Source of the DNA: Chiloscyllium plagiosum
Taxonomy: Eukaryota
NCBI RefSeq assembly: GCF_004010195.1
Contig: NC_057742.1
Location: 31,456,479 to 31,520,478, forward strand
Length of the DNA stretch: 64,000 nucleotides
Direction of reading: 5' to 3'
The position numbers and the translations under genes were made by a program. The number at the start of each line of letters is the position of its first letter. Within the stretch, counting starts at the first letter, position 1. The notes under the pieces are model-generated. The model was not told where the DNA came from. It made no database searches and saw only the letters and a list, made by a program, of their open reading frames with translations. This document shows, piece after piece, positions 401 through 49,168 of this stretch.

Positions 401-1797
401 CAGTGAACTAAGTCAGTATAGAGGTTTGGTGGGTGTAGGGAAACAGAGGCTGGGGGTGCTGTAAATTCAGTGAAGCCAATATGAAATACAAGAATGAATA
501 TTTTAAATTAACATCTCAGGGATGGATCAGCAAAGATGGAATGTTAGGTAAGCAACACTGCATTCATGTAATTAAATGTTGTACAAGTTGAAAGGCTATT
601 AAGTAACCGGAGTCAGTATGCTGCAAATCCTTCCCTGTCTCATCTACCCTGATACTCAAGAATTGAAAGGAATTCATGGACAGCTTTCTCTCAGAGACTG
701 AGATTACCCAGCCAGTTGCCACCATCTCTTCCCACCAGACTAACAGGTCAAACATTCTCTAACATTCTCACCTTGTTCTCATTGTGAACATCCCCTTCAG
801 CATCCCCAATTGCACAACCATTGGTGACTGCATATAGCTACAGAGATCCTAAATACAGGATTTCCGTCCTGATAAAAGGTCTGGAAAGCACTCAGAGTCT
901 ATGGGGAAGTAGATTCAATTGAAGCATTCAAAAGGGAATTAGACTGTTATCAGCATGTGCACAGTTATAGAGAGAAGGTGGGACAATGGCATTGTGAATT
1001 GCTCACATGGAAAGTTGGTGCAGGCATAATTGCCCAACTGTCTGCAGCATTTCCAAATCCTATGAAAACCTTTCCAATTACCCACTCCCTTTATGACAGT
1101 TCTTTAAATCATCTGATCATTTTTCATCACCTGTTCCAATATCTCTTGCGGCCTGGTGGAAAATTTTGCATGATAGCAGTCCAATGAAGCATCTTGAGAT
1201 GTTTTATTAAAGGTGCCATATAAATTCAAGTTGTAGGTGACAGGGAAATCAATTGCTGAGGTCACAAGATTAGGGGTAATGGTTTCAATTACAATGACAG
1301 TAAGGTAGGGTCAGAGTCAGTCATATTGCACAGGTAGAAGCAAGCAGGATGTGGGAATGATGTGGTATAATTTGGAGATCAGGTCTGTATCAGAGTGGCA
1401 TTTATCATCCTTCATGAATATGGAATGATAGTCAAATAGTAAGGGGTACTCGGTTTATGACGAAAATTTAGAAGTTTTGATCTTCTCTTTTTTAGTTGGA
1501 CAAAATACTGATGTGTGTCTTGAACAGCGAGTCAGGCAGCTTATCTGGAGGATCTAGTTCAAAATTAAATGGGACCGTTCAAGAATTCATCTTCCAAATC
1601 TAAACTAGGATTTAAACACAAATACCTATTGTAGCAGTTGAAAATTTTTCAATGGTACTCAGCTGCCAGATTGAACAGGACAGATCTGAGTAAATGTCAA
1701 ATGCAAGACTTTTTTCGCTGCGGAGTATAGTGCAGTTTGATGAAGTTCTTTCAAACGAGCCCTTATAAACAGGGAATTTACATAATTTTCCACTCAC

Positions 1798-2025
1798 CTG
1801 AGGTAAAGGGCAACAGTTCCAGCCGCCAGCGTTATTTTTGCAGCAACTGCTCCCTGATGGGCATATTGTACCATCATCACAGATCTCGTCCTTCATTTTT
1901 TCCATACTGTTTGTAAGCTTTAGGACCATGGGAATGGAAGAATCCTTCATCTCACACATTCCTTTCTGAACATCACATGTGTAGCCACTGGGACAACAGT
2001 GTATATGATCTTCACAGCAAACTGC
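1798..2025 (-). CDS. grn: Progranulin coding exon 11: C-half + linker + N-half (duplicate unit B, second exon); gene continues beyond the window
   Basis: taatag|[76 protein letters not shown]|gtgagt. 228 nt, phase 0-0. Confidence 0.95.
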
Positions 2026-2683
2026 CTATTAGTACAAAATAACAATATAAAATTAAGATGCAAGTTCAAACAAAAAATTCAACATCCATCTTAATCCTTC
2101 TGAGATTCCCCCGCACTTTTGAAGCCTGCAGGGTGGGCTGTGCATGCGTGTGTTTGCAACAGTTAAACTCTATCCAGTGTGAAACACAAATCCAACTGCA
2201 GTTCAGAATACCATCTGGAGGTTCACTCCTTCACCAATTTACACAATACTACCGAAAAAAATAGCAATCACCCGAAATATTCAACACACATGATGAATCA
2301 ATAATCATCTGATACTGTGAAGAGGCAGACTTGAAATGCAGTGAATGTTGTGATGAAATAAAACTTAAGTATCAGATCAATGTGGGGAGCATACTAGATA
2401 TTGTTAATCCATAATCGTCGGTATTTCAATTTTTCTTCCTGAAAATCCATTTCTCAGTAATACGATTTTCTGAGGAAGGCTACTAAATATACATTCAAAC
2501 TCCACTCTCATTCCAGTTTACACACAATTTGCCTCCCAGCTGGAAAAGAAAGTGCTGATAGCATTATTAAAAGAATGGAACTTCATTCACTGCTTTGAAT
2601 ATCTACCTCAAACAAAGATTCTACATATTGTCAATGATACGTTTTCTAGTGTTCAGGTCAAGATTTTTGTTATTAAAACCAAC

Positions 2684-2923
2684 CTGTGGAATGGGACAGC
2701 ATGCCCAACCTCCTGAAGTGCCCTTGCAGCATGTTTGATTGTCAGCACAGCTCTTGGTTTCATCACACTTGACATTCCTTATTGTACCCTGCACAATAGC
2801 TGGAGTCTTGGTCATCCAGGGAATAGAGATGCCCATCTTATAGCAATCTCCAGTATCAGGATTGCATTTGAAGCCCTTAGGACAACAATCTGGTCTTTGT
2901 ATGTGGTCTTTGCAGCAAACTTT
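2684..2923 (-). CDS. grn: Progranulin coding exon 10: atypical C-half + linker + N-half (duplicate unit B, first exon)
   Basis: aatcag|KVCCKDHIQRPDCCPKGFKCNPDTGDCYKMGISIPWMTKTPAIVQGTIRNVKCDETKSCADNQTCCKGTSGGWACCPIPQ|gttggt. 240 nt, phase 0-0, all 12 Cys retained. Confidence 0.85.
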
Positions 2924-3684
2924 CTGATTGGGAAAATAAACATGCAATAAATTAATCATAGCCCCAAATTTTCTCCTATTAAAATTGATTTTGGGATACA
3001 AACATAATTTAAAACTTTCTGACCTACAATTATGTCAACATTTGTATTTCAAATCATTGTTGGCAGAGTTGCACCTTAAATATTCTTTCATTGTTTACCT
3101 CTCCCGAAGCTGTAAGCAATGTTTTCTGTTTATTTACAGTAAGTCAATAGTGAAGTCTCTTGGTAATTGTTATCAGTTGCTGATTATTTAACCATTTAAC
3201 ATTTACCTTCAGTTCTTGAAAGCCAATGAATATATTTTACAGTTGAATTCAAGGCCTGTGACATGCTCTTGTATCCACAGTATTTATATGGCGAGTTCAG
3301 TTCATTTTCTGAACACTGGTAACCCCCCCGAATGTTGATAGGGGAAGATTTCGTGATAGCAATGCCACTGAATGTCAAGGGGCCATGGTTAGATTCTCTC
3401 TTCTCAGGGATGGTCATTTCCTGGCCCTTATGCGACTCTAGTGTTCTGAAGTGGGAAGGTGATTAACGTACAAGTTGAAGATGGTTGGACCTAGCACACT
3501 GTCGTGACAAAATCCCACAAAGACGGCCTGAAACAGGATGACTGACTCCAGTAAACTCAGTCATCTTACCTTGGGTGTGACTCTAACCAGCAGTTTTCTC
3601 TTCCTTGATTCTCACCCAATTCCCATTGACTCTAGTTTTGCCAAGGCTTCACAGTTAAATTCGGTTTCAATATGGTTGTGTGCA

Positions 3685-4937
3685 AGATAAATCGTGTCTC
3701 AAACTTGATTGAGATTTTTGAGCAAGTAATCAACATGATTGATGAGGGCAGAACAGTAGGTATTATTTACTTGGATTTTAGTAAAACCTTTGACAAGTCC
3801 CGCATGTTAGATTAATTAATAAAGTTAGATCACATGGAATTCAGGGTGAGCTTGCCAATTGGATACCAGATTGGCTTAATGGCAGCAGACAGAGTGTGAT
3901 GATGGAAGGTTGCTTTTTGGACTGCAGGCATATGACCGGTCGTGTTCCACAAGGATCGGTACTGGCTCCACTTTTGTTTCTCATTTATATAAGTGATTTA
4001 GATGAGAATATAGAAGCATGGTTCGTAAGTTTGCAGATGACATCAAAATTGGTGGTACAGTAGACAACGAAGGAGGTTATCTAAAGTTACAAAGAGATCT
4101 TGTTCACTTGGGTCAATGGGATGAAGAATAGTAGATGGAGTTTAATTTGGATAAATGCAAGGTATTGTATTTTGATAATTCGAACAAGGACAGGATTTAT
4201 ACAATTAAAAAGACAGTCTCGGTTAGTTTTGTAGAATAGAGACACTTAGGGGCTCAAGTACATAATTCTTTGAAATTTGTGTCTTGGGTAGACAAAGTGG
4301 TTAAGAAAGTGTTTAGCACGCTTGTCTTCATTGCTCAGACCTTCGAGTAAAAGGGTTGGGACATCATGTTAAGGTTGTACAGTACATTGATGAGGCCTAT
4401 TTTGGAGTAGTATGTTCAATTCTGGTCCTTCCATTATAGGAAGAATATCAAGTTACAGAGGGCTCAAAAAAGATCTACCAGGATGTTGCCAGGAATGGAG
4501 GGTTTGAATTATGAAGACAGCCTGGACAGATTGGGACTTTTTTCACTGGAGCGTATGAGATTGAGGGGTGACTTTATAGATGTTTATAAAATCATGAGGG
4601 GTACAGTTACAGTGAATTGCAGGTGCCTTCACCCTAATGTGGGGAATTTCAAGACTGGGGCATATTTTTAAGTTAAGAGGAGAACGATTAAAAAAATGAT
4701 ATGGGGCAATTATTTGATTTTAAACACAGATTGGTTCATGTGTGGAATAAACTTCCAGAAGAAGTGGTGAATGCAAGTACTGTTACAACATTTAAAAGAC
4801 ATTTAGATAAGGACCAGAATAAGGAATGTTTGGAGGGGTATAGGCTTAGCGCAAGAGGGTGGGACTAGTTTAGCCTAGGATTATGTTCTGCTTGATTGGA
4901 CCAATAGGTCAGTTTTAGTGTTGCAAGACTCTATGAT
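3685..4937 (+). mobile_element. CR1-clade LINE, 3' portion, degenerate
   Basis: Reverse-transcriptase remnants (YLDFSKTFDK, KFADDIK), C-terminal LGLFSLERMRLRGD motif and a gactctatga-type tail. Confidence 0.85.
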
Positions 4938-4984
4938 ACTATTATCAAGGGCAGTCACACGCCTCACCTCTGAAATTCAGTTCT

Positions 4985-5510
4985 ATTTCGGCTGTACACT
5001 TATCCTCACCCTTTCCCACATTACACTGTCAGGTTTTTGCCCACTCACTTAATTTGCCGATATTTTTCTGTTGATTCCTTGAGACATCCTCACCATTTGC
5101 TTTCCCACAATTTTGAGTGATCCGCAAACTTGGTAATAGCATACTCATTTCCCTCACCCATGTCATCAATATAGTTGTAAATAATTGTGGCCCCAACACT
5201 GACCTCCCGAAACACTCCACTAGATACAGCTTGCTATCCTGAAATTGCCTGTTTTAACCCAACACTATCTTCTGTTAATTAGTCAATCCTCTATCCATGA
5301 AAATCTACAACTCTCAATACCATGCAGTCATCCTATTAAGTAACTTTTACTTAATAGGATGAGTCATTACCCCAAATGCATTTTGGAAATTCAAATATAT
5401 TATATTGACTGGCTCCTTTTTATCTATACTGCTGTTAAGTCTCCAAAGAATTCTAATAAATTTGTCAGTCATCACTTCCCTTCATGAAGCCATAATGACG
5501 CTACCTAATT
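4985..5510 (-). mobile_element. CR1-clade LINE RT fragment
   Basis: Minus strand gives GSVLGPQLFT and KFADH-like reverse-transcriptase remnants. Confidence 0.65.
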
Positions 5511-6478: not shown

Positions 6479-6570
6479 CTGAGGTAAAGAGCAACAGCTC
6501 CAGCTGCCAGTCTTATTTCTGCAGCAACTGCTCCATCACGTGCATTTTATACCATCATCACAAGTCTTAC
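6479..6570 (-). pseudogene. Degenerate N-half granulin remnant (intronised part of the former exon)
   Basis: Paralogous to 1798-1890 but 1 nt shorter. The ancestral frame reads [29 protein letters not shown] with TGA at 6536-6538. The old donor has decayed to CAG|gttaga. Confidence 0.85.
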
Positions 6571-6705
6571 CTTCATTTTTTCCATACTGCTTGTCAACTT
6601 CAGGACCATGGGAATGAAAGAATCCTTCGTCTTACATAAGCCTTTCTGAATGTCACATGTGTAGCCATTGGGACAACAGTGTGTATGATCTTCACAGCAA
6701 ACTGC
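6571..6705 (-). CDS. grn: Progranulin coding exon 9: C-half + linker only (shortened by a new donor)
   Basis: caatag|[45 protein letters not shown]|gtaaga. 135 nt, phase 0-0. Use of this donor is inferred from the consensus match and frame preservation. Confidence 0.72.
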
Positions 6706-6951
6706 CTATTGGTACAAAAGCAACAATATATTAAGTTGTATTTAATCACAGCATTCACTGCATTTCAAATCTGGCTCTTTCCAGCTTCCAGATGGTTTTT
6801 GATGCATCATGTGTGTGGATATTTTGGGTGATCTATCTTTTGGGGGTCGTATTATTGGAAAAGAAACATACCTCCAGCTGGTATTCTGAACTGCAGGTGG
6901 ATTTGTGTTACACAGTGGATAGTGTTTAACTGTTGGAAACATGCATGAACA

Positions 6952-9617: not shown

Positions 9618-9845
9618 CTGTGGAATGGGGCAGCACGCCCAATCTCCTGAAAGGCCCTCGCAGCATGTTTGATTGTCAGGACAGCTCTTGGTTTCATCAC
9701 ACTTGACATCCCTCACTGTAACTTGCACAATAGCTGGAGTCTTGGTCATCCAGGGGATAGAGATGCCCCTCTGGTAGCAGTGTCCTTCCGAATCACATTC
9801 GAAGCCATGAGGACAACAATGTACGTGGTCTTCGCAGCAAACTGC
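9618..9845 (-). CDS. grn: Progranulin coding exon 8: C-half + linker + N-half (duplicate unit A, first exon)
   Basis: cattag|AVCCEDHVHCCPHGFECDSEGHCYQRGISIPWMTKTPAIVQVTVRDVKCDETKSCPDNQTCCEGLSGDWACCPIPQ|gttggt. 228 nt, phase 0-0. Confidence 0.95.
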
Positions 9846-20297: not shown

Positions 20298-20395
20298 CTT
20301 TGGTGCAGGACAGCATCCAAATTCTCCTGAAGGAAGCTTACAGCAAGTATTATTATCAGGGCAGAACACTGTTTCGTTGCACCACACATATTGAA
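20298..20395 (-). CDS. grn: Progranulin coding exon 7: N-half module
   Basis: ttttgtag|(V)[32 protein letters not shown]|gtaaga. 98 nt, phase 1-0. N-glycosylation sequons NET and NNT. Confidence 0.95.
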
Positions 20396-21772
20396 CTACA
20401 AAAGCAAATAAGATAATTAATTAATGGAAGACAAAATCTAATGGTGTCACATGGTGGAGCATAGGAACAAGAGAAAGAGAAATAAGTGGACATTATACAC
20501 AACATACATGGGAACAAAACGAAAATCAGTAATTTCAACAATAATTTTTCCTTCAACGGTGCTCTGAAAGCAATCGACTATTTTATTCATTTGCGCGACC
20601 AATTTGTTTTTGTGGACTGACCAATTGAGCCTCATCTGATTGAAATATCTAGCCCTAGTTCCATGTTCAACTTAAATCAAAGGAGCAGGAATAGGCTATT
20701 TGGCCCTTCAAACCTGCTCCACCATTTAACATGATCATGGCTGATCATCCAACTCATACCTCATTCCTACTTTCTCCCCCACACCCTTTGATCCCTTCAG
20801 CCCCAAGAACGATACCTAATTTCTAACTGAAGACATTCAATGCTTTGGTTTCAATTGCTTTCTGTGACAGAAAGTTCCAGAGGCTCACTACTCTCTGGAT
20901 GAAGAAATTTCACTCCACCTCAGTCCAAAATAGCCTACCCATAACCTTAAACTGTGAATCTTAGTTCTGAAAACTCTATCGGGTAAATCATTTATAGACT
21001 GCTAGGAGCTCTAAAGTGGATAACCTCACAATTACCCACATTATACATCATCTTCCATAGATTTGCCCATGTACTTAACTTGCCCAAAACTTTTGAGCAT
21101 CTCTGCATGCTGCTCACAGCTCATCCACCCACCCTCCCAGCTTTGTGTCTCCTGTAAACTTGGAGATTTACATTTAGTTCCCTAAACTAAATCATTAACG
21201 TATATTGTGAATAGCTGGGATCCAAGCAGTGATCCCTACAGTAGCCCACTAATGCTAACTTTAGATGGCAGAGGACGTTTAGTTGTGAAAGGATAGATTG
21301 ATGTTATGGCAGATTTCTTTCAAATGTTGAAAAAGTTAAATTTTGTCCACAGGGTAGAAAATTTGATCAAGAGAAGAGAAAAGAATTATAGTGGTTAGTA
21401 TAAACAACAACAAAAAAAAGTCAGGTTAAATGTTGAGAACTGCTTTTCCATTTTCAAACTGAAACACAGAATCAAGTGTAGGCCATTCAGTCTCTCAAGC
21501 CTGTTACATTATTTGATGAGAGCAAGGCAGCTCTGCAGTGTGAACTCCTTTACCTCCACGGGGTCCATAATAATAGGTCACAGTTAGGGCAGTAAAATAT
21601 AACACGGCACTTTGCACCAATGTTTTCACACCAAATTTGACACTTTGTCATGTACAGGAGTTATTAAATGAATAATGGCTTAGTTAATGAGGTATGAATT
21701 AAGGACATTGCAGAGACAAAGATTTAGAGCGGAAGTTTCAGAGATCAGAGTTTCAACAATCATAAAGTGATT

Positions 21773-22038
21773 AAAACCAGGGTCACGAGAAAGGCCAGAA
21801 TTGGTGTAGCGCAGACAAAGCTTGTAGACCTGTGGAAAACTACAAAGAGGGTCATGAGGGAAGTTACAAAAACAAGTGGAAGTAGTTTAAAATGGAGTAA
21901 TCAAAAACCAGGGTCACGAGAAAGGCCAGAATTGGTGTAGCGCAGACAAAGCTTGTAGACCTGTGGAAAACTACAAAGAAAGAGGGTCATGAGGGGAGTT
22001 ACAAAAACAAGTGGAAGTAGTTTAAAATGGAGTAATCA
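21773..22038 (+). repeat. Recent two-copy tandem duplication (131 + 135 bp)
   Basis: aaaaccagggtcacgagaaagg...ggagtaatca is repeated. The copies differ by a 4-bp indel and one substitution. Confidence 0.95.
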
Positions 22039-23757
22039 GTTAACTAGAGCACAGGGCGATGGATGACTGGGACTTGGTGCATGTTACAGAAATTTCAATG
22101 AGCTCAAGTTTTTGGAAAGTGGCAGACGAGAAACCAGGCAGTACAGTGTTTGAATAGTTGATAGGTTATAATGTATTTGTTTCTTTGAAGTCCAGATTGC
22201 AAGAAGAAATAATAAATTTACCTCATTCACTAAGCCATTATTCATTTAATAACTCCTGGGGTTTACCAGAATGGCTGCATAATTTGAAAGGAATTTGACA
22301 CCTATTGTGAAATCTGTTTATTTGTGATGATAGGTTCCTGCAATCCACAAGAACTGAAGAAAATTCATTTCAGATGCAAAATGTTAACTGTTTTTTTCTT
22401 CACAGATGCTACCAGAGCTGCTGAGTTTTTCCAATATTCTGTGTGCGTTCTAGAAAAGTTTATCTATTCAGTAGCAGATAGATGCCAGAGTGAGGGATGG
22501 AGTTGGTGGCTAAGGAAGTAATTTGCAGTGGGGTTCAAAGACAATAGCTTTGGTACTCCCAACATTTAGTTAGAAGAAATTTCTCCTCATCCACTACTGG
22601 GATATTAGACATAGGCATAGGCACAGTTGTAATTCAGAAACAATGGTCCTGTTAATAGTGACGCATGTATGTTAGCTGACAAAGTTTCAGGAGCAGAAAC
22701 AAAGAACAGCAGCATCAAAGGCTCAATGGATGAGAAGGGATAGTTTACCTTTCCTACTGGATGTTATATGTGACGTTAAGATTGTTTCACAACAATGATG
22801 GAATGGAACATCTTCAAAACCTTCAAATTGTGAACCCACTCCCGTTCCTTCCCTTTCTTTTAGCTTTACTTGTTATATTCTCTGTCACCAGGACTGGCTG
22901 TTCTTTCCAGTTTAGCAATTAGACACACCATGGTTCTGCAATTCACACATTCCAATCCTTTAATCTGAACTATCAGCATCCTTTCTCCTAAGGCACTCTC
23001 CCTCTCCCCCGCCATTCTATCCCCTCCACATTTCATGTCAGGTCTGAAGAACAGTGATCTGGACTCGAAACATAAGCTTACTTTCTCTCCATGCTTGCTG
23101 CCTGGCCCACTGTGATCTCCAGCATATTTTATTTTCTGTACAGATTCCAGCATCTGCAGTATTTTGCTCCTACATGGTAGAATGGAAATTTGATTGGAGG
23201 AATTCCTACATGAAATTCCAGGAAAGAAGGGTTTGGCTTATGGAAGATGGCTGAATGTTCAAAGAATCAAGAGGAAACGGAAATTGGTGACGGGGTGGTA
23301 GTTGCAAAAATGGACAAAACATTCCGGGCCTTTGATCCAAAGAGAGGACTGATGTTTGGAAAATTTGAGAAGGAGAGAAGCAGTACCAGAACAGGGAGAA
23401 CCATTAACAATATCAAGTAACGCTGGGATCAGTAAAGGAATCAGCAGTTTGTTGGGAGCATTTGAAGAAGCAAGAAGTGGGACTCATAACAATCAGCTCA
23501 TGATCAGAGGCAGGATAGACTTCAGGGAACGACAAGAGTATTCAGGGCTAGGAATGCCTGAGGGAATCTTGGAGGATGTTTTGCCTGGTGGTCCAAGGAA
23601 TGAATGTTAGCGGCAAAGGGAGTTGAATAGACGAGCTCAATCTTATGTGAACACTTCAATTATTATTGGTGGCAAAGGCAGAAGATACACAGAGGAAACG
23701 TTTTTAAAAGACTGTGTAATAAAAGTCTATTAGCTTTTTTGAAGTTCATGATGAACC

Positions 23758-24066
23758 GTGGGTGGCACGGTGGTTAGCACTGCTGCCTCACAGCGCCAGA
23801 ATCCCGGGTTCAATTCCCGCCTCAGGCAACTGTCTGTGTGGAGTTTGCACATTCTCCCCGTGTCTGTGTGGGTTTCCTCCGGGTGCTCCGGTTTCCTCCC
23901 ACAGTCCAAAAAATGTGCAGGTTAGGTAAATTGGTCATGCTAAATTGTTCGTAGTGTTAGGTGAAGGGGTGAATGTAGGGGAATGGGTCTGGGTGAGTTG
24001 CTCTTCGGAGGGTCGGTGTGGAGTTGTTGGGCCGAAGGGCCTGTTTCCACACTGTAAGTAATCTAA
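23758..24066 (+). mobile_element. HE1/V-SINE-type SINE
   Basis: gggtggcacggtggttagcactgctgcctcacagcgcc...gggcctgtttccacactgtaagtaatcta. Confidence 0.92.
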
Positions 24067-24822
24067 TTAAACATCATCAGCTCTTTGGATAGTGTTTCAG
24101 CTCTCCATTACATTGTGTGTGAAGTGCTAATTCTGATATCACCCTGGAAAAGCCTTTGTCTAACTATAACTTTATACTCTTCGCTTAGGACTCCCTCACC
24201 ACAGGAAATGCCCATAGTTTATTTCTCTCAAGATGTCAGCACATATGGTGAATAACAATTCACTGGAAGCATTCAGAGGAAATTGGCCAAGTTAAGCCTA
24301 TCAAGCTAGGAAAGGAAATGGATTACAATAAAAACTAAGCACTGAAGAAACTTAGATCTGGCAGCATCTCTGGAGAGAGAAACAATTAACATTTTAAGTC
24401 CCATGCACATTTTTTCATATACACATTTCTCTTGACCTGCTACCAAATGTCAACTGGTAGTTTCTTTCACTACAAACTCAAAAAAAATGCATAGACCAGC
24501 TGATCCATTGGTCTTCTGCTGCCCTTGGAAAATAGTTAACATAACTATCTTATCTCCACAGACAATCCAATAATGCTCAGGATGCCATCATAACTGGACC
24601 CTCTAACTTCATTTTAATATCTGGATTGATTTTGAGCTACAAGGGAAAAAGGCACCTTTCATACTGAATAGATGGATTATCCTTGTCTTAGCTCAATATG
24701 GCTTCAATTACTGAAGTGACACAAGCATATTAAAGGTACAAAAACAATGATCAGCAGAAAAGAAGATATTTAAATGATCATCCTAAGAATTTATTTTCCA
24801 TTGTGAACAATATTATGAGAAA

Positions 24823-25115
24823 TTAGATTAGATTAGATTACTTACAGTGTGGAAACAGGCCCTTCGGCCCAACAAGTCCATACCAACCCTCCGAAGAGCA
24901 ACCCCTCCAGACCCATTCCCCTACATTTACCCCTTCACCTAACACTATGGGCAATTTAGCATAGCCAATTCACCTAACCTGCACATTTTTTGGACTGTGG
25001 GAGGAAACCCATGCAGACACGGGGAGAACGTGCAAACTCCATACAGACAGTTGCCGGAGGTGTTAATTGAACCCAGGCCTCTGGTGCAGTGAGGGAGCAT
25101 TGCTAACCACTGTGG
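24823..25115 (-). mobile_element. HE1/V-SINE-type SINE
   Basis: Reverse complement of the same family, with a (TAGAT)n tail at 24823-24840. Confidence 0.9.
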
Positions 25116-25204
25116 TTAATAATTAACAAAATCTAATCTGGATGAATCCTTCTATTAATTAGAGTTTGGACTATGCGGCTAAATAACAATAAAATTTGCA
25201 ATAC

Positions 25205-25352
25205 CTTTAGTATCCTTCACTGTAAATCTCTTGAAAGCTGGAAACTTTTTCCACATTTCCATCATACCAAATTGAGACACACACTTGGACTGTTTCAGAT
25301 CACATCTGGTTTCAGAAGGGCAGCAGTGCAAACGATCCTCACAGCACACAGC
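25205..25352 (-). CDS. grn: Progranulin coding exon 6: C-half of F/B-like module + linker
   Basis: gtgtag|AVCCEDRLHCCPSETRCDLKQSKCVSQFGMMEMWKKFPAFKRFTVKDTK+G|gtattg. 148 nt, phase 0-1. Confidence 0.94.
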
Positions 25353-25950
25353 CTACACAAGAAGTGATTAAACAAAATGTACAGGAGCTTATTCTGTGTT
25401 TCCAGCATGAAATATTTATTCATCAAAAAGCTGATAAATAATGTACACATATTTCGTAATCCATTCTATTAGTTTTTTAGAGGCAGGCGGCAACTATCTT
25501 TAACATGTTCTCCTAAATTTCTAAACATCACACCATTAAAGTTAAAAGCCAACTTATCCACTGTAATACTAGCCCCTTTTACGTTTTCATAAGAAGAAAG
25601 CATGAAAAAAGTTAAAAGAGTTCGTTATAAACCAGAAAACAAACTTTTTAACCAGCTTTCCTGCAAAGTTATTTTGGAATTTTCCTACCTTGGAACTCAG
25701 ACAGTCAAACAATTAGTCGCATATGGGTCAAACTGTTAAGAGTTACAGAGTAACATAGGACATAGGAAATAGTTGCCTTCCCTGAGCAGCTGGGCTTTTG
25801 CAATAGCCTGTCCACAAATTTACTGAATTAATTTGAGTGATTTATAGCACTGCATTTCACAATTTATCAACACAGGTTTCGAATGCTCAATCATTTAGTT
25901 AAAATACACAATACCTCAGAGCTAAAATGAAATTATTGGTCAAACTATAC

Positions 25951-26060
25951 CTTTTCTAAGGGGCAGCACCCCCACAGCTGGTTTGGAAGTATGCAACATG
26001 TTGAGCCATCAGGACACTCAGACCCTCCATCTGGGCAAATAATTGCTTTTTCATTCTCAT
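25951..26060 (-). CDS. grn: Progranulin coding exon 5: N-half of F/B-like module
   Basis: ttcacag|(D)ENEKAIICPDGGSECPDGSTCCILPNQLWGCCPLEK|gtatag. 110 nt, phase 1-0, which matches the phase-1 end of the preceding exon. Confidence 0.95.
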
Positions 26061-27319
26061 CTGTGAACAACATGTGGCATTTCAGTTTTTATATGATAAT
26101 TATATTGTAGCAACACAAAACAGTTTCCATTTAAAAAGACAGGTTGTAACCTTGATAGTTCTTCCTTGTGAAAAAGTCAGCCCTGTAAGGAAAGGTAAAG
26201 GAATTCAATTTTAAAAATGCTTGCAATTGGCAGATCATGGTGACCATCTGGAAGTAACAGATTGTGTTTGGCTCTCTATATATAAACTTTACAGCACAGA
26301 AAACAGCCATCCTTACTTCCACACAACCCACTTTAAATTTTTATTCAAAGTGTACTTCAACAAGAATCTGGTGCTGCTAATGTCACCACGATGCAGGTCT
26401 GCACTGGAACCAGAATTGGTAAACCTACTGTTGCTGCCTCACTCTAATCTTGACTCTGAACTCCAGCATCTGCAGTACTTACTTTCACCTACCTCATCAT
26501 TGCAGTCCACACATTCCAATCCCCTTACCTCTGGGCTAACCCGATGGTGGAGAACCTTTGGTTGTGATATCAATTAGTTAATGTTATATCAGGTCCATAC
26601 GGATCCAGCCGAAAATTTAAATTATAAAATACTAACTTTTAATGGTAGAACTTGCATTTGTGTTGAGAGCACTTTCTGCAATTGAACTGGCAGAAAATAC
26701 AGTCTTTCTTTAACAGAACCCAGGTTAAGTTTCTCATTTGTAAGAATCTGACCATGTTCTTTCTTAAACAATTTATGCAATCAACCTCCACCATCTTATT
26801 GGGTACAGCATCACAGATTCCAATATCTTGGAAAAGAACTTATTTCCAACCTAGATATTTCAGAATTATTTTCGTCCTATAATTTTTGATTAATCATCTA
26901 ATCACAGAAGAACTTCTTTTTCTTATCTAAACTAATCCTTTTGAAAACCCTCACAAGGTTACCCCTGTTCCAAGGAACACCGTCCTAATCTTTTCCAACC
27001 CTCATTTCATAATGAATGCCTCACATTTAGGTGGAATTGTCTATCCAGAACCATTTTCTCTAGTAAGAAAAAGCGTCTCACTGCCCACACCTCGCTCCAG
27101 TCGAATTAGACCATTTGCTCAGAACTTTCATTGGCATTACACCAACCCCAAAGGCTGTATCATTTTACTCTTTGTGACTGAGGCACATCAGGGCAGCTCA
27201 GCAAATGTAAAACCAAACATTTTAATTAGTTGTTCTGCTCACTAAAAGGTTGTTACGAACTGGGCTAATTATTGAAAACTAACTGAAGAGATATTGGATA
27301 TTCCTCAAGATTCCAAGGA

Positions 27320-30300
27320 AAAGATAAAGCAGAAGTATTTCCAGCAACCTTTAGCCAGAAATGCAGAGTAGGTAATCCATCTCAGCCTCCTCCAGGGATC
27401 CCACCATGAGATGCCAGTCTTCAACCAATGCAATTCACTCCACTGATAAAGAAACAGTTTGAGACATTGGATACTGCAAAGACTATTGGCCCTGACAACA
27501 TTCCTGCAATAGTACTGAAGGCTTCTGCACCAGAACTTGCCGCACTCCTAGCCAAGCTGTTCCACTACTTTTACAACACTGGTATGTACCCGACAATGTG
27601 GAAAATTGCCCAGATACGTCCTGTACACAAACTGCAGAACAAACTCAACCGAGCCAATTACCTCCCCATCAGTCAACCTTCGATCATCAGGAAAGAGATG
27701 GAAGCTGTCATCACCACTGTTATCAAGTAGACTTGCTTAGCAATAAGCTTAAAAATGTGTTGCTGGAAAAGTGCAGCAGGTCAGACAGCATCAAAGAAGG
27801 GCTTATGCAGGTCGATTCTCCTGTTCCTTTGATGCTGCCTGACCTGCTGCGCTTTTCCAGCAACACATTTTTAAGCTCTGATCTCCAGCATCTGCAGTTC
27901 TCACTTTCTCCTTGCTCAGTAATAACCTGTTCAATGAAACCTAGCTTGAGTTCTGCCTGGGCCACAGCTCCTGACTTCACTGCAGTCATAGTTTAAACAT
28001 GAATCATAGAAACCTCAGTTCAGAAAATGGCCATTTGGCCCAATGGATCTGCACCAACCCTCCAAAGAGCATCCCACACAGACTCACCCTGTCCTCATAA
28101 CCCCACATGGGGTTTTTACCATGGCTAGTCCACCTATCCTATAGATTTCTGGACACTAAAGACAATTTGGGATGGCCAATCCACATAACCTGCATTTCTT
28201 TAGGTTGGGGGAGGGGGAATTGGAGCATCAAGATTTAATCTATGCAGATACTGAGAGAACTTGCAAACTTCACAGAGGCTGGAATCGAACCTGGGTTCCC
28301 AGCAGTGCTAACCACTGTGCTGCAAAAGAGTTTAATTCCAGAAGCAAGGCCAAAGTGACTTCAAGGCTGCATATGACCAGATATGGCATCTAACAGCCCT
28401 AGCAGAACTGGAATCAATGGGTATTTGGGGGTAAACGCTCCACTAATTGGAGTCATACCAGACACATAAGATAGTTGCGGTCGTTGGAGGTCACTCATCT
28501 CAACGCCAGGATATCTCTGCAGAAATTCCTTATGTAGTGTCCTAGTCCAAATTATCTTCAGCTGCTTCAATGACCTTTCTTCAATCAAGTGGGGATGTTC
28601 GCCAATGGTTTCACAGTATTCAGTACCATTCCCTCCTAACATACTTAAGCAGCCTATGTTCAAATGCATCAAGACCTGGAAAACATCCAAGCTTAGGGTG
28701 ACAAACAGCAAATACATTCAAGCCAAAATAAAAGCCAGGCAATGACCATTTCCAATAAGGGTTAATCTAACCACCACAACATAACATTCAATGGTGTTAC
28801 CATCACTGAATCCCCCACTATCAACATCCTGTGGGGTTATCGTCGACCAGAAACTGAACTGGACTTGCCATTATAAATACAATGGCTACACATGCAAATC
28901 AGAGGCTAGGAATCTTGTGGAATCTCCCGATTCCTCAAAGCCCATCTACTATCTATGAGGCACAAGTCACGAGTATGATGGAATACTGCCCACTGTCTGG
29001 ATAGGTGCAGCTTCAACACCAATCACAAAGCTTGACACCATCCAGGACAAAGCAGCCCACTTGATTAGCACCACATCCACAAGCATCCATTCCCTCCCTC
29101 CAAGCAACACACAGTAGCAGCAGTGTACACTATCTCCAAGATATCCTGCAGAAACTCACCAAAGATCATCGAACTGTACAGCACAGTACAGGCCCTTCCG
29201 CCCACAATGTTGTGTCGAGCATTTATCTTAATCTAAGATCAACCTAACCTACACACCCCTCAATTTACTGCCATCCATGTGCTTATCCAGCAGTCGCATA
29301 AATGTCCCTAATGTATCTGACTCTACCACCACTGCTGGCAGTGCATTCCACGCACCCTACACTCACTACATAAAGACATCACTGACATCTCCCCAAACCT
29401 TCCTCCAATCTTCTTGAAATTATGACCCACATGACATCCATTTCTGCCCTGGGGAAAAATCTCTGGCTATCTATGCCTTTCATTACCTTGTACATCTCTA
29501 TCAAGTCACATCACTTTTTTCTTCTCTCCAGTATGAAAAGCCCGAGCTCACTCAACCTCTTTTCATAAGACAAGCCCTCCAATCCAAGCAGCATCCTAGT
29601 AAATCTCCTCTGCAACCTCTCTAAAGCATCTACATCCTTCCTAGAATGAGGCGACCAGACCTGGATACAATATTCCAAGTAGATCTATTTACTTGGAATA
29701 TACAAATTATTCTCCCACCCTAGTCACTCTTTAACCACCAGACCGCACAGTTTACCTATCCTTCGCTACATTTCATCTCGACACTCTTTAACACTCACTG
29801 CAACTCTGTCCTCAGTGCTCATTGGAGTCCTGCAGCTTGTCATGCTTAAATGCAGGATCCTAGTCTCAGTATTAACTATATCACTCTTCACCTCAATGAA
29901 AAGTTCTATTACTTATGGTTGCTCATCCCAAGGGGCCTCACATTATTAGATTATCAAATATTCCTTTCTCTTTGCATGATAGCTAGTCTAGGGTGGCCTG
30001 TGTTGTAGTTGGTTCCTCAACATATTGATTCAGAAAGCCATCCCCTGGAACTCTTCCTGTAAGGTAATGTTACTAATTTGATTTGTCCAATCTACGTGCA
30101 AATCAAAGTCACCCATAATTACAGATGTTCGTTCATTGCATGTATCCCTAAATTTCCTGTTTAACGCCATTAGTGCGACATGGTGTCACGGTGGTCAGCA
30201 CTGCTATCCCACAGTGCCAGAGCCTGGGCCCGACTCTAGCCCCTAGAAACTGCGTGGAGCCCACATGCTCTCCCCACGACCACACGGGCTTCCTCCCACA

Positions 30301-31530
30301 GTCTAAAGACATATAGGTCAGGTGTATTAACCATGGTTACTGTGGAGTTATGGGGATAAGATAGGGGTCTGAGTCGGTTGCTCCTCTGAGTGCCTGCGCA
30401 GACCCGATGAGACGAATGGCCCCTCTACCATTCCCAACAGTTTGGGGGTCTATACAAAACACCCATAATGTCTTTTGTCCCTTGATGTTTCACACTCCTG
30501 ACCATACAGCTTCCACAAATGTTCTCTTTAACTAGGAAGGCAAATCCTTTTTATCTGTCTTTCCAAAATACTGAAAACTCTTGGATATTCAAGTTCCCAT
30601 CCTTGGTCACCTGCAACCCTAACTATATCATTCCTGTTTTCATCTATTTACACAATTAATCCATTCACTATTGAGGATGCTCTGTGCATTAGGACACAAA
30701 GCCTTAAGGTGTGTCTTTTTAACATTACTTCTCCATTTTCAGTATTTTTCACTGTCGCCATATTTGGTCCTGGCCCTTAGTTTCTCTGCAAAACATTTTT
30801 CTTATTCCTCTTTGTGTTTTGTCCTTGATTCCTCTTCTCTGACTCCTTGCGTAGTTTCTCATCCTTCTGCCATTTGAGTTTAAAGCCTCCCAGCCACTCT
30901 AGCAAATACCCCCTCGAGGACATCAGTTCTGGTCTTTCCCCAAGTGTAACTTGCCCAGTTTGTATTGATCCCATCTCCCCCAAACCAATCCTAATGCCCC
31001 AGGAATCTGCAATCCTACCTGTCAAGCCATCTCTTCAGACTAGTTTCCGTCTTGTTGAGGATGGTTAATGCTTGGCATTTGTGTGAAGCAAATGTTACTT
31101 GCCACTTGTCAACCCAAGCCCAGACATTGTTTATAGGCTCCAAATTCAACGGCATTTGAAACTACTCAAGAAGAGGTTTTTACAACAAGAGGAAACTCAT
31201 TATATCACTGGTTGAAAGCATTAAAAAGTGCTTCTTAAGCAGCATTTTCCAAACCCTTGACCACTTCCATCTAGAAGGACAAGGGCTGCAGAAACATGGG
31301 ATCACCACCAGCTGCAAGTTCCCCTTCAGGTCACTTACTATCCTGACTCAGCAAAGCATTGCTGATTGTTCAATTACACAATTTCTTCAAAATCCTTGAA
31401 TTCCCCAAACAGCATTGTGGGTCTATCAACAGCATATGGACTACAGTGGTTCAAGACAGTAACTCCATCACCTTTCAATGTTGACTAGGGACAGACAATA
31501 AATGCTCACCAGCCAGTAATGCCCATTTCC
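27320..31530 (+). mobile_element. L2/CR1-group LINE split by nested fold-back, SINE and antisense CR1 fragments
   Basis: GPDNIPAIVLKASAPELAALLAKLF...NYLPIS RT remnant. Pieces lie at about 27320-27746, 27911-28000, 28325-29170 and 31245-31530. Inserts: SINEs at about 28005-28320 (-) and 30175-30430 (+), CR1 pieces at about 29170-29680 (-) and 29800-31030 (-). Confidence 0.65.
27747..27910. mobile_element. Penelope-derived fold-back element with deleted centre
   Basis: Inverted arms ttaaaaatgtgttgctggaaaag / cttttccagcaacacatttttaa, with an imperfect 15-bp TSD at 27732-27746 and 27911-27925. Confidence 0.8.
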
Positions 31531-32599
31531 TACAAGTGTATAACAAAAACTGACTGCATGACAGGATACAAATAGAACATTAGGAATTTGATCATTTTGC
31601 ATCTTCACCTGTCATCTAATGCTAAAATTAAAGCCTGGTTCTTCATAAACCAGAAGCCAAGTACGAAACTCTTCAGATGTTGAATGCCTCAATGCCACTG
31701 TCCCCAACTTAGGGAAACTAAACTGCCTTGAAAAAAATGGAAGTCATTTCATTATTCAATTAATCAGCAGTACTCACTGCCTGTATAGGTGCTATGCACC
31801 AAACTTAGTCTGTCTTATAACTTTGTAGTTTTAAGTACCCTATCAAATCATCTTTCAATCTCTTAAAAGAGTCCTAACTTTCTAAATGCTTCCTCCTGCT
31901 GAAGCTCCCTCCTACAGGTAAAGTTCTATTAATTTCATGTTGCAACTACAATACTGTCCCAATACTGCCACCCATAGTCATGCCTGAAGTGTACAAAATT
32001 TTTCAATTATGGTATTGCAAACTTTTTTTTTAAGATCAATTATATCTCAATTTTAAATTTTACAGCTTGCAATAAAACCCAGCATTATATTTGATTTTAT
32101 TTTAAAAGCAGAAATTCATCAAGTCTTCCATATTGTGTAACTTTTCACCTGTACAAGTATAAATACTGCTTTACTGAAAAAAGATTGGATCACCTCATTT
32201 ATTAGCAATTGAATCCCAGCTGCAGATTTCCTTGCTCATTTCACTGTCTCCTATGCCTCTTTGTTGCTTCTTTTCATTTTCAGTTACTTTTAATTTCAAA
32301 ATTAGTAGTTTTAATACCTGGACTCATCTCTCTCCCTCAGCAGAAATGAGTTCATCAAATTGATAATTTGTGAATCATATGTACTCAAGAAGCTTAGATC
32401 ATCTGCGCCAAATACTAGAGGTACAGAACTATATGAATAGGAAGGATTTGGATGGATATGGGCCGGGTGCTGGCAAGTGGGACTAGATTGGGTTTGGATA
32501 TCCGGTCAGCATGGACAAGTTCGACCGAAGGATCTGTTTCCATGCTGTGCATCGCTATGACTCTATACTCCAGCTGGACTGACATGCCTTTATATAAGG

Positions 32600-33190
32600 T
32601 TTGGATCCTCAAAAAAACTTGCTAAGTGGCAGAGAAGCCTGGGTAACTCTCACCTAACAAGATGAAAAGTTCAAGAATTTAGGTCATAATTTTGGCATTA
32701 AAAGAAAAAAAAAGTCTAACGCATCAACAAATCAGTCCTTAGTAGGTCCAATATGCCAAGTTTGCTAGTGCGAATCAAGCAAATGAGGCTTCACTAGCTT
32801 GGACAAGTGCACAGGTTGGAAAGTGGCTGCATCTCCACAGCAAGGTAGCCTATTGCTAGAGACCAGTAGAGTGCCTAAAGCTCTGACACAGGACACTCCC
32901 AAGAGACATGAATGCCTTCACATCAATCACAAGTGCGAAAAACAGCAGTAGCCCGAGTTCACCACCAGACGATGAATGGCTCCAGAAACACCAAAGCAGA
33001 TGCCAGGCATACAAATAAGGAGACAGCAAAGATCATTCTACAACATTGACAAAGGCCATTTTCATGTGTGGCACTTGTGGTAGACTATGTCTTTCCAAAA
33101 ACAGTTTGACCAGCCTTAAAAAGTGCAGATGATCTCATTCAAATTCAACAAAGATCTGAGGCTGCATTCCTACCATCTCAGACAGAGAGA
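32600..33190 (+). mobile_element. RTE-like LINE 3' remnant
   Basis: Degenerate C-terminal zinc-finger-like FMCGTCGRLCLSK at about 33060-33100. Confidence 0.4.
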
Positions 33191-33290
33191 AGTATGCTAA
33201 CAAACCAGAATTATAATGCAATATTCACAGTGAATTTAAAGTTAAGAAACTGCAAAAATTAACATTTCCATAAACTATGCAACAGCTTAC

Positions 33291-33372
33291 CAACAGGTTT
33301 GATGCAGGTTTTTTTTGCTTTATCACATTTGAAATCTTTTGGACAGCAGTAGTGGTCATCACAGCATACTGC
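33291..33372 (-). CDS. grn: Progranulin coding exon 4: C-half of extra module
   Basis: tttgcag|AVCCDDHYCCPKDFKCDKAKKTCIKPV+G|gtaagc. 82 nt, phase 0-1. Not in the ORF track in this frame. Confidence 0.93.
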
Positions 33373-33694
33373 CTGCAAACAGAATGATACTTTATGACAA
33401 CATTTTCAGCAGGCATACCATATTTCAAAAAGACTTGATTATTTGAAATAAATTTGCTTAATTTGCCCAAAACTATTAGATAAGATGGACAGAAGATACC
33501 AGAATTCAAAGCTAGCACGTCATGTTATGGGCATGAAGCAAATATTATTTTGGGCTATTCTAAGAGCTCCTACAAATTTTCACGCATGTGGTTCCCAATT
33601 TGTGAGGACTGAACTAACAATTATTTAGAACTCTGCTTCGTCAGTATTCTATCATTCAGAAACTAAACAACTGCATGAATCGCAAGTCGTGGAG

Positions 33695-34115
33695 AGGTGG
33701 TTGTGGTGAGACTGTAATGCAACTGGACTTGTAATCCAGAGTACCAGACTAATGTGGGAGAAAGTAAGGACTGCAGATGCTGGAGATCAGAGCTGAAAAT
33801 GTGTTGCTGGAAAAGCGCAGGTCAGGCAGCATCCAAGGAGCGGGCTAATGTTCTGGGGACATGCATCTGAGTTCCATCTTGGGAAATGGTGAAATCTGAA
33901 TTCAATACAATTTTGGAATTAGAAATAAGCTAATCTAATGGAGTAAAAGTCATGAAAACAAAAAATTAGCAAAAATAAATCAGCCACACTTATTTGGTAT
34001 GTATGTGACTCCAGATCCACTGTAATGTGGTGGACTCTTAATTGCCTTCTGAAATGGCCTGTCAGGCAGTTCAAAGACCAATTAGGGATAGGCAACAAAT
34101 TGTGGCTCAGGCAAT
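33695..34115 (+). mobile_element. Second tRNA-derived SINE family (related copy at about 46360-46660 on the minus strand), interrupted by a Penelope-end fragment at 33756-33844
   Basis: tRNA-like head, 3' end caattagggataggcaacaaat shared with the L2/CR1-group LINE tails, and TSD CTAATGT around the internal insert. Confidence 0.55.
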
Positions 34116-34973
34116 GATAACCAAATAAATGATTAAAACAAAAGCTTTAAATTTGATTATTCCTGATTTGTCTTTAAAATTGACATCATTTTAAACATTT
34201 TGGTTTATACTTTTGATTTACTAAAATTTAAGTGTTTACTCTTTGAAATGATCCTGAACCCACAGTTCCATCAATCCAAACAAAAAGTGCGCAACTATTA
34301 TTTCTGGACTTAAGCCACGCATTAGGTAGCAGTATGTCTAAAATCGATAATCAATGATTTGCTGTGATGCTAAACATTAAATGAACCGAGTCCAGTTCTC
34401 CAGTTAGGGGGATGGTTGGTCAATTTCTGATGTTTTACAAAGGTGATCACAAAGTAAATCCTACTGTCAGAATTTAAATCGTGTCTTTGAAATGAAAGCA
34501 GCTGTAATATCAGTGAAGAATTTTTGTTTTAGATAGCTAGCTGGATTTCCTGCTGCTCTTTTACAGCAACAGATGAGGTCTGGGTATGGTTGTAACAGCA
34601 AGAAGCTACCTAGGAGTCAAAGGACTATCACAATGCCTTTATAAAATGGGCAAATCAACCTCCTTCTTGGTCTATCATGCTCACATTTGCAAGCAGTTTC
34701 ATTTAGGCACAGGTCACAAACTGCAGTTGAGTTTTTTCTGAACTTCAGGGCAGCCACTATATTTTTGTTTTGAGTTGGATGGAGATCGGAGTAGGATAAC
34801 ACACAGAAGCATATCACCTGCCAATAATAATCAAGAGTGTTACATTTCCTATAGCTAAATGGAATTTGCACCCGAGAGTATATTAAGATGACATTCTTTT
34901 TGACTATTTTTCTGCAGAAATGACACTTTAGGTCAAACTGATCACCCAATTTTGGGAAAAAAATTGATTGTAC

Positions 34974-35285
34974 TGGCACGGCGGCACAGTGGTTAGCACT
35001 GCTGCCTCACAGCACCAGGGTCCCAGTTCGTTTCCAGCCTCGGGCAACTGTCTGCGTGGAGTTTGCACATTCTCCCCATGTCTGCGTGGGTTTCTTCCAG
35101 GTGTTTCGGTTTCCTCCCACAGTCCAAAGATGTGCAGGTCAGGTGAATTGGCTGTGCTAAATTGCCCATAGTGTTGGGTGCATTCGTCAGAGGAAAATGG
35201 GTCTGGGTGGGTTGCTCTTCAGAGGGTCGGTATGGACATGTTGGGCCGAAGGGCCTGTTTCCACACTGTAGGGAATCTAATCTAA
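34974..35285 (+). mobile_element. HE1/V-SINE-type SINE (additional 3' fragment at 35376-35523)
   Basis: tggcacggcggcacagtggttagcactgctgcc...ccacactgtagggaatctaatcta. Confidence 0.9.
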
Positions 35286-35820
35286 CCTACTCTATTTTGT
35301 CCTCTCACAGAAAAGCTGGTTTGGTTGAATTAAATTCTAGCCCTGCAGCAGAATTCATTTGAGAATAAGAAAGGCTAGGTGAATTGGCCATGCTAAATTG
35401 CCAGTAGTGTTAGATGAAGGGGTAAATGTAGGTGAATGGGTCTGGGTGGGTTACGCTTCAGCAGGTCGGTGTGGACTTGTTGGGCCGAAAGGCCTGTTTC
35501 CACACTGTAAGTAATCTAATCTACACTTGTGAAAGGCTCAGCTACAATGTGAAGTTACAAAAGTACTCTCCTGAATAGGTCCATCTCTGGTTTGCACTGC
35601 TGCACATTTAGATATAGGGAAGAGACTTAACTACCATAAAACTAAATGCTAAGGTCATCTACTGGAGCTACTGCATAAGAATTACCCAGAAGAGAATAAT
35701 AAGATGATCACATCATTCTGCATTAATATTCCATCCATTTGGCAGTACTAACAAGTTTTATCAGCACTTAACTAGTTTACAAAGACAGTCCATAAAATGA
35801 TAAGAGGACTCAGGACTCAC

Positions 35821-36051
35821 ATCTTTCATAGGACAGCAACCCCAACCAAAGTTCTTCAACCTGCAACAGGTGTATCCCCCAGAACAGGTCATATTGCCAC
35901 AGAGCTCACTATCATCAGTTCGCAAGTTGTCTACTGCAGAAATCAATGGCAACTTGTCTTCCCTTGCTCCAGTCCTTTTGCATTTGGCTTCAATCAGGTC
36001 ACATTCATATCCCTTTGGGCAACAATGCTCCCAATCCTTGCAAATAGTTGC
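35821..36051 (-). CDS. grn: Progranulin coding exon 3: C-half of G-type module + N-half of extra module
   Basis: tatcag|ATICKDWEHCCPKGYECDLIEAKCKRTGAREDKLPLISAVDNLRTDDSELCGNMTCSGGYTCCRLKNFGWGCCPMKD|gtgagt. 231 nt, phase 0-0. Confidence 0.95.
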
Positions 36052-36355
36052 CTGATACCAGGGAATAAAGATATATTTTCATAATATTCAGCAATAAAAA
36101 GAAATGAACATAGAAAATGCATAATTTATATTAAATTAATGAAAAACTGGAAATCCATAGACCTTGGAGAAAGAAGTCACCAATGATGTGAACAGGTTTA
36201 TTTGATTTTAACATTTTAATTGAATTTCTGTTCTCACAAAGTTAAATAATGTTTAAGTTGTATGGCATAAAGTTTAAAAGTTTGATTATTAAATGCAAAC
36301 ATACAATTAAAGGTCACGAGAAAGCTACTGCTAAAAATTAACTATTCTATTTTAC

Positions 36356-36505
36356 CTTAGTGAATGGGCAGCAACCATAAAAGCCTTTTGACGTGGGCAT
36401 ACAAGTGTATTCAGGGGGACATTCAGTATTATCCAGACAGATATTTTCAGTCACTGCATTCGGTGTTCCCGCCTGAACAAGTGGGGTGGCTTTTGCTTCT
36501 TTCCA
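36356..36505 (-). CDS. grn: Progranulin coding exon 2: linker + N-half of G-type (10-Cys) granulin
   Basis: ttttag|WKEAKATPLVQAGTPNAVTENICLDNTECPPEYTCMPTSKGFYGCCPFTK|gtaaaa. 150 nt, phase 0-0. Single Cys where a CC is usual. Confidence 0.93.
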
Positions 36506-49030: not shown

Positions 49031-49168
49031 CTGAGGGAGAGGGCAACAGGTATAACCACCATTTGGCTTCTTACAACAGGTTGTTCTGTATGGGCAGGTA
49101 GATCCATCTGGACAGACAGCGGAGGCCAGGCCAGTGGCCAGACACAGGAGGACAAACTGTTGGATCAT
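49031..49168 (-). CDS. grn: Progranulin first coding exon: signal peptide + paragranulin (N-half module)
   Basis: Encodes MIQQFVLLCLATGLASAVCPDGSTCPYRTTCCKKPNGGYTCCPLPQ (46 aa, 138 nt). Acceptor tttcgtttcag|ACCATG (exon starts at 49171), donor CAG|gtaggt. Hydrophobic leader followed by a C-C-CC-CC half module, with the same coding length as the first coding exon of human GRN. Confidence 0.96.

Follow-up and report, generated by a model that had tools for sequence, protein, structure and literature searches.

[quoted passage not shown] Its first two cysteine doublets are spaced as CC-x8-CC, a loop length that is unique among the C-halves examined in this study. The unpaired C-half is already known as a category and the bamboo-shark case is not the first of its kind; in the available text of Palfree et al. 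2015 (PMC4527844) such a half is designated 'q', and an EST-confirmed case is given from the elephant shark. An earlier note on this DNA had described the half as a mirror image of paragranulin, which is right inasmuch as it is an unpaired C-half, but the category itself had been named by Palfree et al. We use the designation q for the bamboo-shark module below.

The progranulin locus

The window, by which we mean the whole 64-kb stretch of DNA analysed, encodes part of a progranulin of the bamboo shark (Chiloscyllium plagiosum) that is identical to XP_043531176. A cysteine-pattern scan of the window revealed that its minus strand carries a series of granulin exons (Table 1). The gene starts at 49168 and continues beyond the low end of the window, where four further exons are found. 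The exon at 2923-2684 (minus strand, 240 nt, ends CAG/ and /GT, phase 0/0), hereafter the q exon, matches C. plagiosum progranulin by 100% and encodes residues 441-520 of its 870-aa form (P0018). The sequences of the q exon and of its paralogue at 9845-9618 both read as the earlier note quoted them, but the 30-mer of q spans 2923-2834 and not 2923-2840.

The 870-aa protein contains 12 Pfam Granulin stretches, its precursor has 130 cysteines, and its layout is p-g-g-g-g-g-q-g-g-g-g-g, beginning with a single unpaired N-half and having a single unpaired C-half in the middle. The paragranulin (49120-49031) is the sole unpaired half in the protein other than q. A signal peptide followed by tandem granulin modules on N, C and CN exons is as found in the long-form (GrnA type) progranulins, and one orthologue carries the source name 'granulin a'.

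Table 1. Features of the q exon, its paralogues and the surrounding gene (positions in the window)
Feature	Position	Strand	Remarks
Orphan C-half granulin (q)	2834..2923	-	Residues 441-470 of the 870-aa protein; Cys 443, 444, 453, 454, 460, 467
Linker downstream of q, same exon	2774..2833	-	
N-half of the q exon (2923-2684)	2684..2773	-	Transcript contig record joins two exons
9-nt insertion	2890..2898	-	His to Gln-Arg-Pro-Asp; CC-x5-CC to CC-x8-CC; boundary slides by one base
Likely insertion template	2904..2911	-	13 nt upstream of the insertion; templating presumed
Shortened exon B1, C-half and linker only	6571..6705	-	Spliced directly to 2923
New 5' splice site AAG/GTAAGA	6565..6573	-	Sister exon: AAG GAC GAG; used in transcript contigs
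Dead N-half, now intronic	6479..6570	-	1-nt deletion; stop 6538-6536; six Cys codons; old donor visible
Exon A1, paralogue of the q exon	9618..9845	-	Canonical paired C-half; lineage-specific 3-nt deletion; more acidic
Exon B2, intact sister of B1	1798..2025	-	
First coding exon	49031..49168	-	Signal peptide and unpaired N-half (paragranulin, 49120-49031)
Upstream granulin exons, same gene	20298..36505	-	About 36505-36356, 36051-35821, 33372-33292, 26060-25951, 25352-25206, 20395-20298

Some further observations were made on granulin sequences outside this exon chain. At 15523-15424 on the minus strand lies a pseudo-exon that resembles an N-half but has decayed, containing a stop besides its good acceptor; it is absent from the annotated proteins and is the best non-exon match to the N-half profile (10.9 bits). 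Between 49031 and 36505 the first C-half exon is missing in the carpet sharks examined, and is present in Heterodontus, Heptranchias, Scyliorhinus and the elephant shark; the paragranulin of carpet sharks was apparently gained independently of that of tetrapods. A search of 49031-36505 found no remnant of the lost exon, and a possible one near 48010 was rejected as it lies in repeat DNA. A second granulin gene was also detected (L007 2513-2752 and L008 9510-9731; G000:C5, about 23.237-23.257 Mb), in which one C-half ends without its final two cysteines, a feature also described for C_mil2 of the elephant shark, and a sister exon is without nearly all C-half cysteines and has no in-frame stop over the stretch.

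Exon duplication and loss of the partner N-half

Two neighbouring exons, A and B, have been duplicated in tandem to give the order A1-B1-A2-B2. A1 (9845-9618) and A2 (2923-2684, the q exon) are copies of each other, as are B1 (6705-6479) and B2 (2025-1798), flanking intron included. B1 gained a donor just before its N-half, this N-half decayed, and B1 is now spliced to A2. Where B2 reads AAG GAC GAG ahead of its N-half, B1 has AAG/GTAAGA, and the former N-half of B1 (6570-6479) is disrupted by a 1-nt deletion and by two stops, a TGA in its own frame and a TAA in the read-through frame. As read-through to the old B1 donor meets this TAA, a full-length protein is made only via the new donor. With B1 spliced to A2, the C-half of A2 has no N-half before it; a complete module of 12 cysteines has the N-half directly followed by the C-half, while here the upstream exon stops short of the N-half. 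What characterises a q module, six C-half cysteines and no preceding N-half in the spliced transcript, is found. The loss of the partner at 6479-6570, proposed in the earlier note, is hence borne out by the deletion, the stops and the new donor, and q is both translated and unpaired. We regard the locus as a clean case of module loss through splice-donor gain; tandem duplication and exon loss are described as recurrent in the available text of Palfree et al. 2015 (PMC4527844).

The 9-nt insertion in A2 (2898-2890) splits a His codon and repeats the 8-mer at 2911-2904, with 8/9 bases equal. The note had read it as an echo of the adjacent sequence that lengthens CC-x5-CC to CC-x8-CC and removes the His, and we agree on each of these points; judged from the repeat, the insertion is probably of templated origin. 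The second indel between the copies is a deletion in the paralogue, as the six-residue second loop is found in 9/12 rows, so the paralogue lost a codon. Two sequences of events are possible: the insertion may have compensated for a preceding loss of the N-half, or it may have spoiled the pairing, with the N-half lost afterwards.

Stegostoma (zebra shark) and Rhincodon (whale shark) have a single A-B pair and no duplication. Most simply, the duplication would be specific to Hemiscylliidae, though the trees leave its timing relative to Stegostoma and Rhincodon unordered. The whale-shark orthologue of the dead N-half of B1 (P0005, about 330-355) has lost two cysteines in the gene model.

Splicing and expression

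RNA contig runs were aligned to positions 1600-10100. The three runs carry differing organism labels, but their exon pieces are 0-1 base off the window, and they are not to be counted as three species. The joint 6571 to 2923, with GT..AG ends, was detected in 3/3 contig runs at depths of 127, 412 and 4, no lower than the depths of the neighbouring exons (82; 283-346; 3.0-3.3), and in each of the runs the contig continues unbroken through the joint at full depth. The same junction and the insertion are present in 9/9 RefSeq gene models of the protein cluster, which come from C. plagiosum, C. punctatum and Hemiscyllium ocellatum. The joint 9618 to 2923 was not found among the 15 of 62 joints shown, from contigs that drop rare variants.

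These data bear on several points of the earlier note. The mRNA includes the q exon; it is joined there from 6571, rather than exclusively after the intact N-half of A1 (9618 to 2923); and the orthologous RefSeq proteins are intact in two more species. The term free-standing half module used in the note is justified as to pairing only, as seen from the joint 6571 to 2923, and not in the sense of a released peptide.

An apparent joint that goes back from 6704 to 1797 was rejected, as it is explained by the exon that follows downstream and is similar to B1. At 6651, in exon B1, all three contig runs differ from the window base (Ile to Val), due to either an allele or an assembly error.

Loop length and cysteine framework

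The census of C- and N-halves covered those 286 of 288 proteins that have at least 100 aa, mainly the best 120 of 746 and the best 150 of 633 matches; it should be noted that this set leans to long repeats and isoforms and that a few rows were mis-parsed by the pattern. CC-x5-CC was found in 1318 of the 1352 unique C-halves, a loop of x7 or more in three, and x8 in one, which is q. A His stands before the second CC in 1256/1352 unique C-halves, at the position where q has Asp. The C-half of a complete module is recognised by these two traits, and q, with x8 and Asp, has neither. The x8 spacing is found in 1248/1528 unique N-halves.

Unpaired C-halves recur in the census, with 14 unique ones in 13 proteins. 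Besides q there are 13, of which 11 have x5 and two have x6, and many of these others may be gene-model errors. Two similar progranulins, P0140 and P0146, one of them from Pecten maximus, share an unpaired C-half with a lengthened x6 loop (416-438 in each); in a Mizuhopecten protein the matching half is paired, which makes this a possible parallel case. In the progranulin P0204 the signal peptide is immediately followed by a unit that resembles a C-half and has CC-x10-CC spacing (27-53).

The identity of q as a C-half is supported by profile searches. The q exon matches Pfam PF00396 at 26.9 bits, over the cut-off, q itself scores 22.6 bits on the C-half profile versus 6.8 on the N-half profile, and its alignment to human granulin A (PDB 2jye) has a gap of 3 residues. 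The ESM Atlas gave granulin clusters only, under 0.9.

Through the insertion the distance from Cys7 to Cys9 has increased from 7 to 10 residues (Cys443 to Cys453). As a span along the sequence, this equals the CysIV-CysVI span of the paragranulin in the same protein (32 to 42), and in q as in the paragranulins, again in terms of span, ten residues separate the two partnerless cysteines over a CC-x8-CC hairpin. The paragranulin cysteine order C-C-CC-CC, with CysI-III and CysII-V bonds, is on the other hand not that of q, which is CC-CC-C-C.

Charge

Net charge was calculated as K+R-D-E, and the comparison was made against six outgroup sharks. The net charge of q is +2 in C. plagiosum, +1 in C. 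punctatum and +1 in H. ocellatum. In Stegostoma and Rhincodon the paired orthologues have a net charge of 0, and the paralogue has -4/-2/-2; a value of +2 is likewise found for two ordinary C-halves of the protein. The shift to basic charge reported in the earlier note for the most part does not hold up; its reference was the copy that had drifted acidic.

Two of the five Lys of q are also present in the paired orthologues and one is species-specific. K5 is common to the paired orthologues of Stegostoma and Rhincodon, K19 is found in 11/12 rows, only the C. plagiosum paralogue having Glu, and K1 is private to C. plagiosum, with Thr in the other two species. A to T, H to QRPD, K16, N21, K29 and M30 are the changes truly derived in q, where the new Arg is accompanied by a new Asp and K29 by the loss of R30. 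Basic charge as a derived trait of q was hence rejected, the residues being largely ancestral and the paralogue having become acidic. Cationic disulfide-rich antimicrobial peptides commonly have a net charge of +3 or more, a level that q does not reach in any of the three species. The new cationic peptide that the note had envisaged is not supported, the half having a net charge of +1 to +2 and largely ancestral residues.

Sequence divergence and selection

Compared with the paralogue, the linker and N-half of the q exon differ at 13/150 nt, whereas the C-half differs at 17/78 nt and has two indels (Fisher p=0.007). The flanking introns of A1 and A2 have diverged by 12-24% in three well-aligned stretches, one further stretch being poorly aligned. 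In the N-halves at 9707-9618 and 2773-2684 residues co-vary within species, a pattern that suggests gene conversion between the duplicated exons. The near identity of linker and N-half to the paralogue pointed out in the earlier note is real, but the contrast to the C-half is probably inflated by such conversion. For the q half, pN/pS against the paralogue is 0.84 (11 nonsynonymous and 3 synonymous changes), a figure that mixes changes on both copies.

Across the three species q varies at 1/30 sites (1/24 non-Cys), and the inserted residues are invariant. The other C-halves vary at 16/207 sites, the N-half of the same exon at 6/24 (versus q, Fisher p=0.10) and the whole protein at 72/870. The probability of at most one change in a neutral 30-mer is 0.04 at a protein-wide dN/dS of 0.5, 0.002 at 0.3 and 0.12 at 0.7, where the dN/dS values are assumed and the orthologous data are proteins. 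As 33% of all 30-residue windows in the protein vary as little as q, it seems that q is constrained about like any C-half, and not more. In a C-half tree of 27 columns the stem of q is 0.44, followed by branches of 0-0.035, and the stem of the paralogue is 0.13.

The note had further stressed that all cysteines are kept. This is true but uninformative, and we rejected cysteine retention as evidence of selection, as the dead N-half keeps its six Cys codons too. The available parts of PMC11406177 and PMC10587355 gave no value for the neutral divergence of these sharks, and a short-length homologue search gave no candidate and added no further shark species.

A proposed self-closed half-module and its alternatives

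In a full granulin module the disulfides are 1-3, 2-5, 4-7, 6-9, 8-11 and 10-12. Given the bonds 4-7 and 6-9, Cys7 and Cys9 are left partnerless in q. Parts of this disulfide pattern are confirmed in the available text of PMC7463432 and PMC4527844.

We tentatively favour, at somewhat short of an even chance, the explanation that q is a self-closed, thiol-neutral half-module under ordinary constraint. It would keep Cys8-Cys11 and Cys10-Cys12, and its orphaned cysteines would bond to each other, Cys7-Cys9, the lengthened loop setting them ten residues apart in the manner of CysIV and CysVI in paragranulins. The outcome would be a half-module with three disulfides and a precursor with two free thiols fewer, and self-closure would allow folding and secretion of this precursor with its 130 cysteines. 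As progranulin needs PDI-family enzymes for its secretion (PMC3196579, part available), free thiols would be expected to be costly. We predict that q is probably freed in lysosomes by cleavage along the linkers it has kept; as both flanking linkers are kept such release is plausible, and granulins are released and stable in lysosomes according to the part of PMC5562298 at hand. The charge being near neutral, no new killing or signalling role would have to be assumed.

The Cys7-Cys9 pairing, raised as an idea in the earlier note, gains a geometric argument from the post-insertion span, as this equals the CysIV-CysVI span of paragranulin. In a zebrafish paragranulin and in N-half peptides a CysIV-CysVI bond links the two free cysteines over a hairpin that reaches from residue 13 to 23, and Cys13-Cys23 is the cross-strand pair of the zebrafish NMR structures (PMC7463432, as far as available). 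Self-closure is also favoured by the joint found in 3/3 contig runs and 9/9 cluster members, by the single variable site of q in three species, by the x8 loop being otherwise N-half-typical, and by the long stem of q followed by near stasis. Several points speak against it. The q loop contains Pro and is without the Gly-rich turn of N-halves, and the bond needed is first-Cys to first-Cys while that of paragranulin is second to second. A liver-fluke granulin C-half alone gave no single folded form (PMC13348780, part available). The conservation of q is not significantly above that of the N-half of the same exon, and the paralogue stem is also lengthened. Nor is the insertion required, since the elephant shark tolerates an orphan with x5 and His and 11/13 of the other unpaired C-halves have x5.

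The most serious alternative, which we still consider unlikely, is that the insertion and substitutions accumulated under relaxed constraint after the partner was lost, and that q is a tolerated passenger kept only through sharing an exon with a needed N-half. It would be partly disordered with mixed disulfides and end in lysosomal degradation, and the x8 match would be coincidental. This would agree with the unstructured state and several isomers of an isolated granulin C-half (PMC13348780, part available), with the pN/pS of the q half, with the loss of a His that is conserved in most C-halves and with the recurrence of unpaired x5 C-halves elsewhere; the pN/pS figure however combines changes of both copies, and a single variable site in three species together with invariant inserted residues is not what a passenger would predict.

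A stronger form of self-closure is a natural self-folding C-terminal mini-granulin, in which the insertion would have given hairpin 3 the geometry of hairpin 2 and fixed a 7-9, 8-11, 10-12 fold that is released as a stable active peptide. We find this doubtful. If true, q would go against what has been published, namely that N-halves alone are able to fold by themselves and exist as discrete peptides. In the available text of a 2025 peptide study (PMC13348780) it is stated that the C-half, unlike paragranulin, is not found in nature as a discrete peptide, and q would not yet seem to contradict this.

It is improbable, in our view, that q pairs over a long range with the paragranulin (residues 17-46) via Cys4-Cys7 and Cys6-Cys9, either within one chain, where some 400 residues would be closed into a loop, or as covalent oligomers of separate chains. 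The protein does have just one unpaired half of each type, N and C, and the free cysteines of the two are complementary. The paragranulin is however older, Stegostoma having it without any q, and paragranulins close on themselves (PMC7463432, part available); five modules lie between the two halves, no paired C-half among the 1352 has the x8 loop, and the elephant-shark q protein is without paragranulin. The bolder variant, where the bonding of q to the N-terminal paragranulin closes the precursor into a covalent loop, is quite improbable.

The view of the earlier note, a neofunctionalised peptide in which linker cleavage frees a new cationic, e.g. antimicrobial or signalling, peptide, likewise has a small probability in our judgement. 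The burst followed by stasis in the C-half tree would fit, as would the little changed linkers kept on both sides, the stability of released granulins in lysosomes (PMC5562298) and the mitogenic activity of even an unstructured C-half (PMC13348780, both in part available). The net charge is, however, the same as that of two ordinary C-halves of the protein, and the basic residues are inherited (K5 and K19), private (K1) or offset (the new Arg and K29). Finally, skipping of B1, which would stay in frame (both exon ends are phase 0), could escape contigs that lose rare variants and would make a paired isoform with q behind the N-half of A1 the relevant one, is very improbable given the unbroken, full-depth 6571 to 2923 contig in 3/3 runs, a displayed set of 15 of 62 joints in which 9618 to 2923 does not occur, and a skip in 0/9 annotated proteins.

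Comparison with known granulin systems

An unpaired C-half kept in three shark species, with a loop length otherwise typical of N-halves, is a natural test of solo folding. Together with its natural controls, the paralogue and the elephant-shark x5 half, q bears on whether loop length lets a half-granulin close on itself, and hence on the folding rules of granulins and on minimised granulin scaffolds for wound healing. The reach is moderate, as q is a single variant restricted to one lineage, and shuffling of modules is a known trait of the family. A literature search covering few subscription journals found no paper on the bamboo-shark q module.

The closest known system is the 'q' of elephant shark C_mil1 (P0064, second C-half; PMC4527844, available text). 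Like the bamboo-shark module it is an internal six-Cys C-half with no preceding N-half in a chondrichthyan long-form progranulin, and it is cDNA-supported, by one EST as compared to three contig runs here. It differs in that it follows the first module and has retained both the x5 loop and the His, whereas the bamboo-shark q is placed mid-chain, arose by tandem duplication and a new splice donor, and has x8 without His.

The paragranulins and mini-granulins (zebrafish ZF-para_3s and Ov-GRN12-35_3s; PMC7463432, available part) resemble q in having six cysteines, two of them partnerless, CC-x8-CC and a 10-residue span. In q the cysteines come in the inverse order (CC-CC-C-C instead of C-C-CC-CC), closure would be through a bond between the first Cys of one doublet and that of the other, and the loop contains Pro but is without the Gly turn. 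The synthetic Ov-GRN39-66_3s (PMC13348780, available part) is, like q, an isolated CysVII-CysXII fragment with six cysteines, but it was engineered from a paired module and takes no single fold, while q is natural, kept in three species and has a longer loop. With the canonical granulin C-half (PF00396; human granulin A, 2jye) q shares the CC..CCP..C..C framework, and it differs from it by the lack of an N-half partner, by x8 in place of x5 and by Asp in place of His before the second CC.
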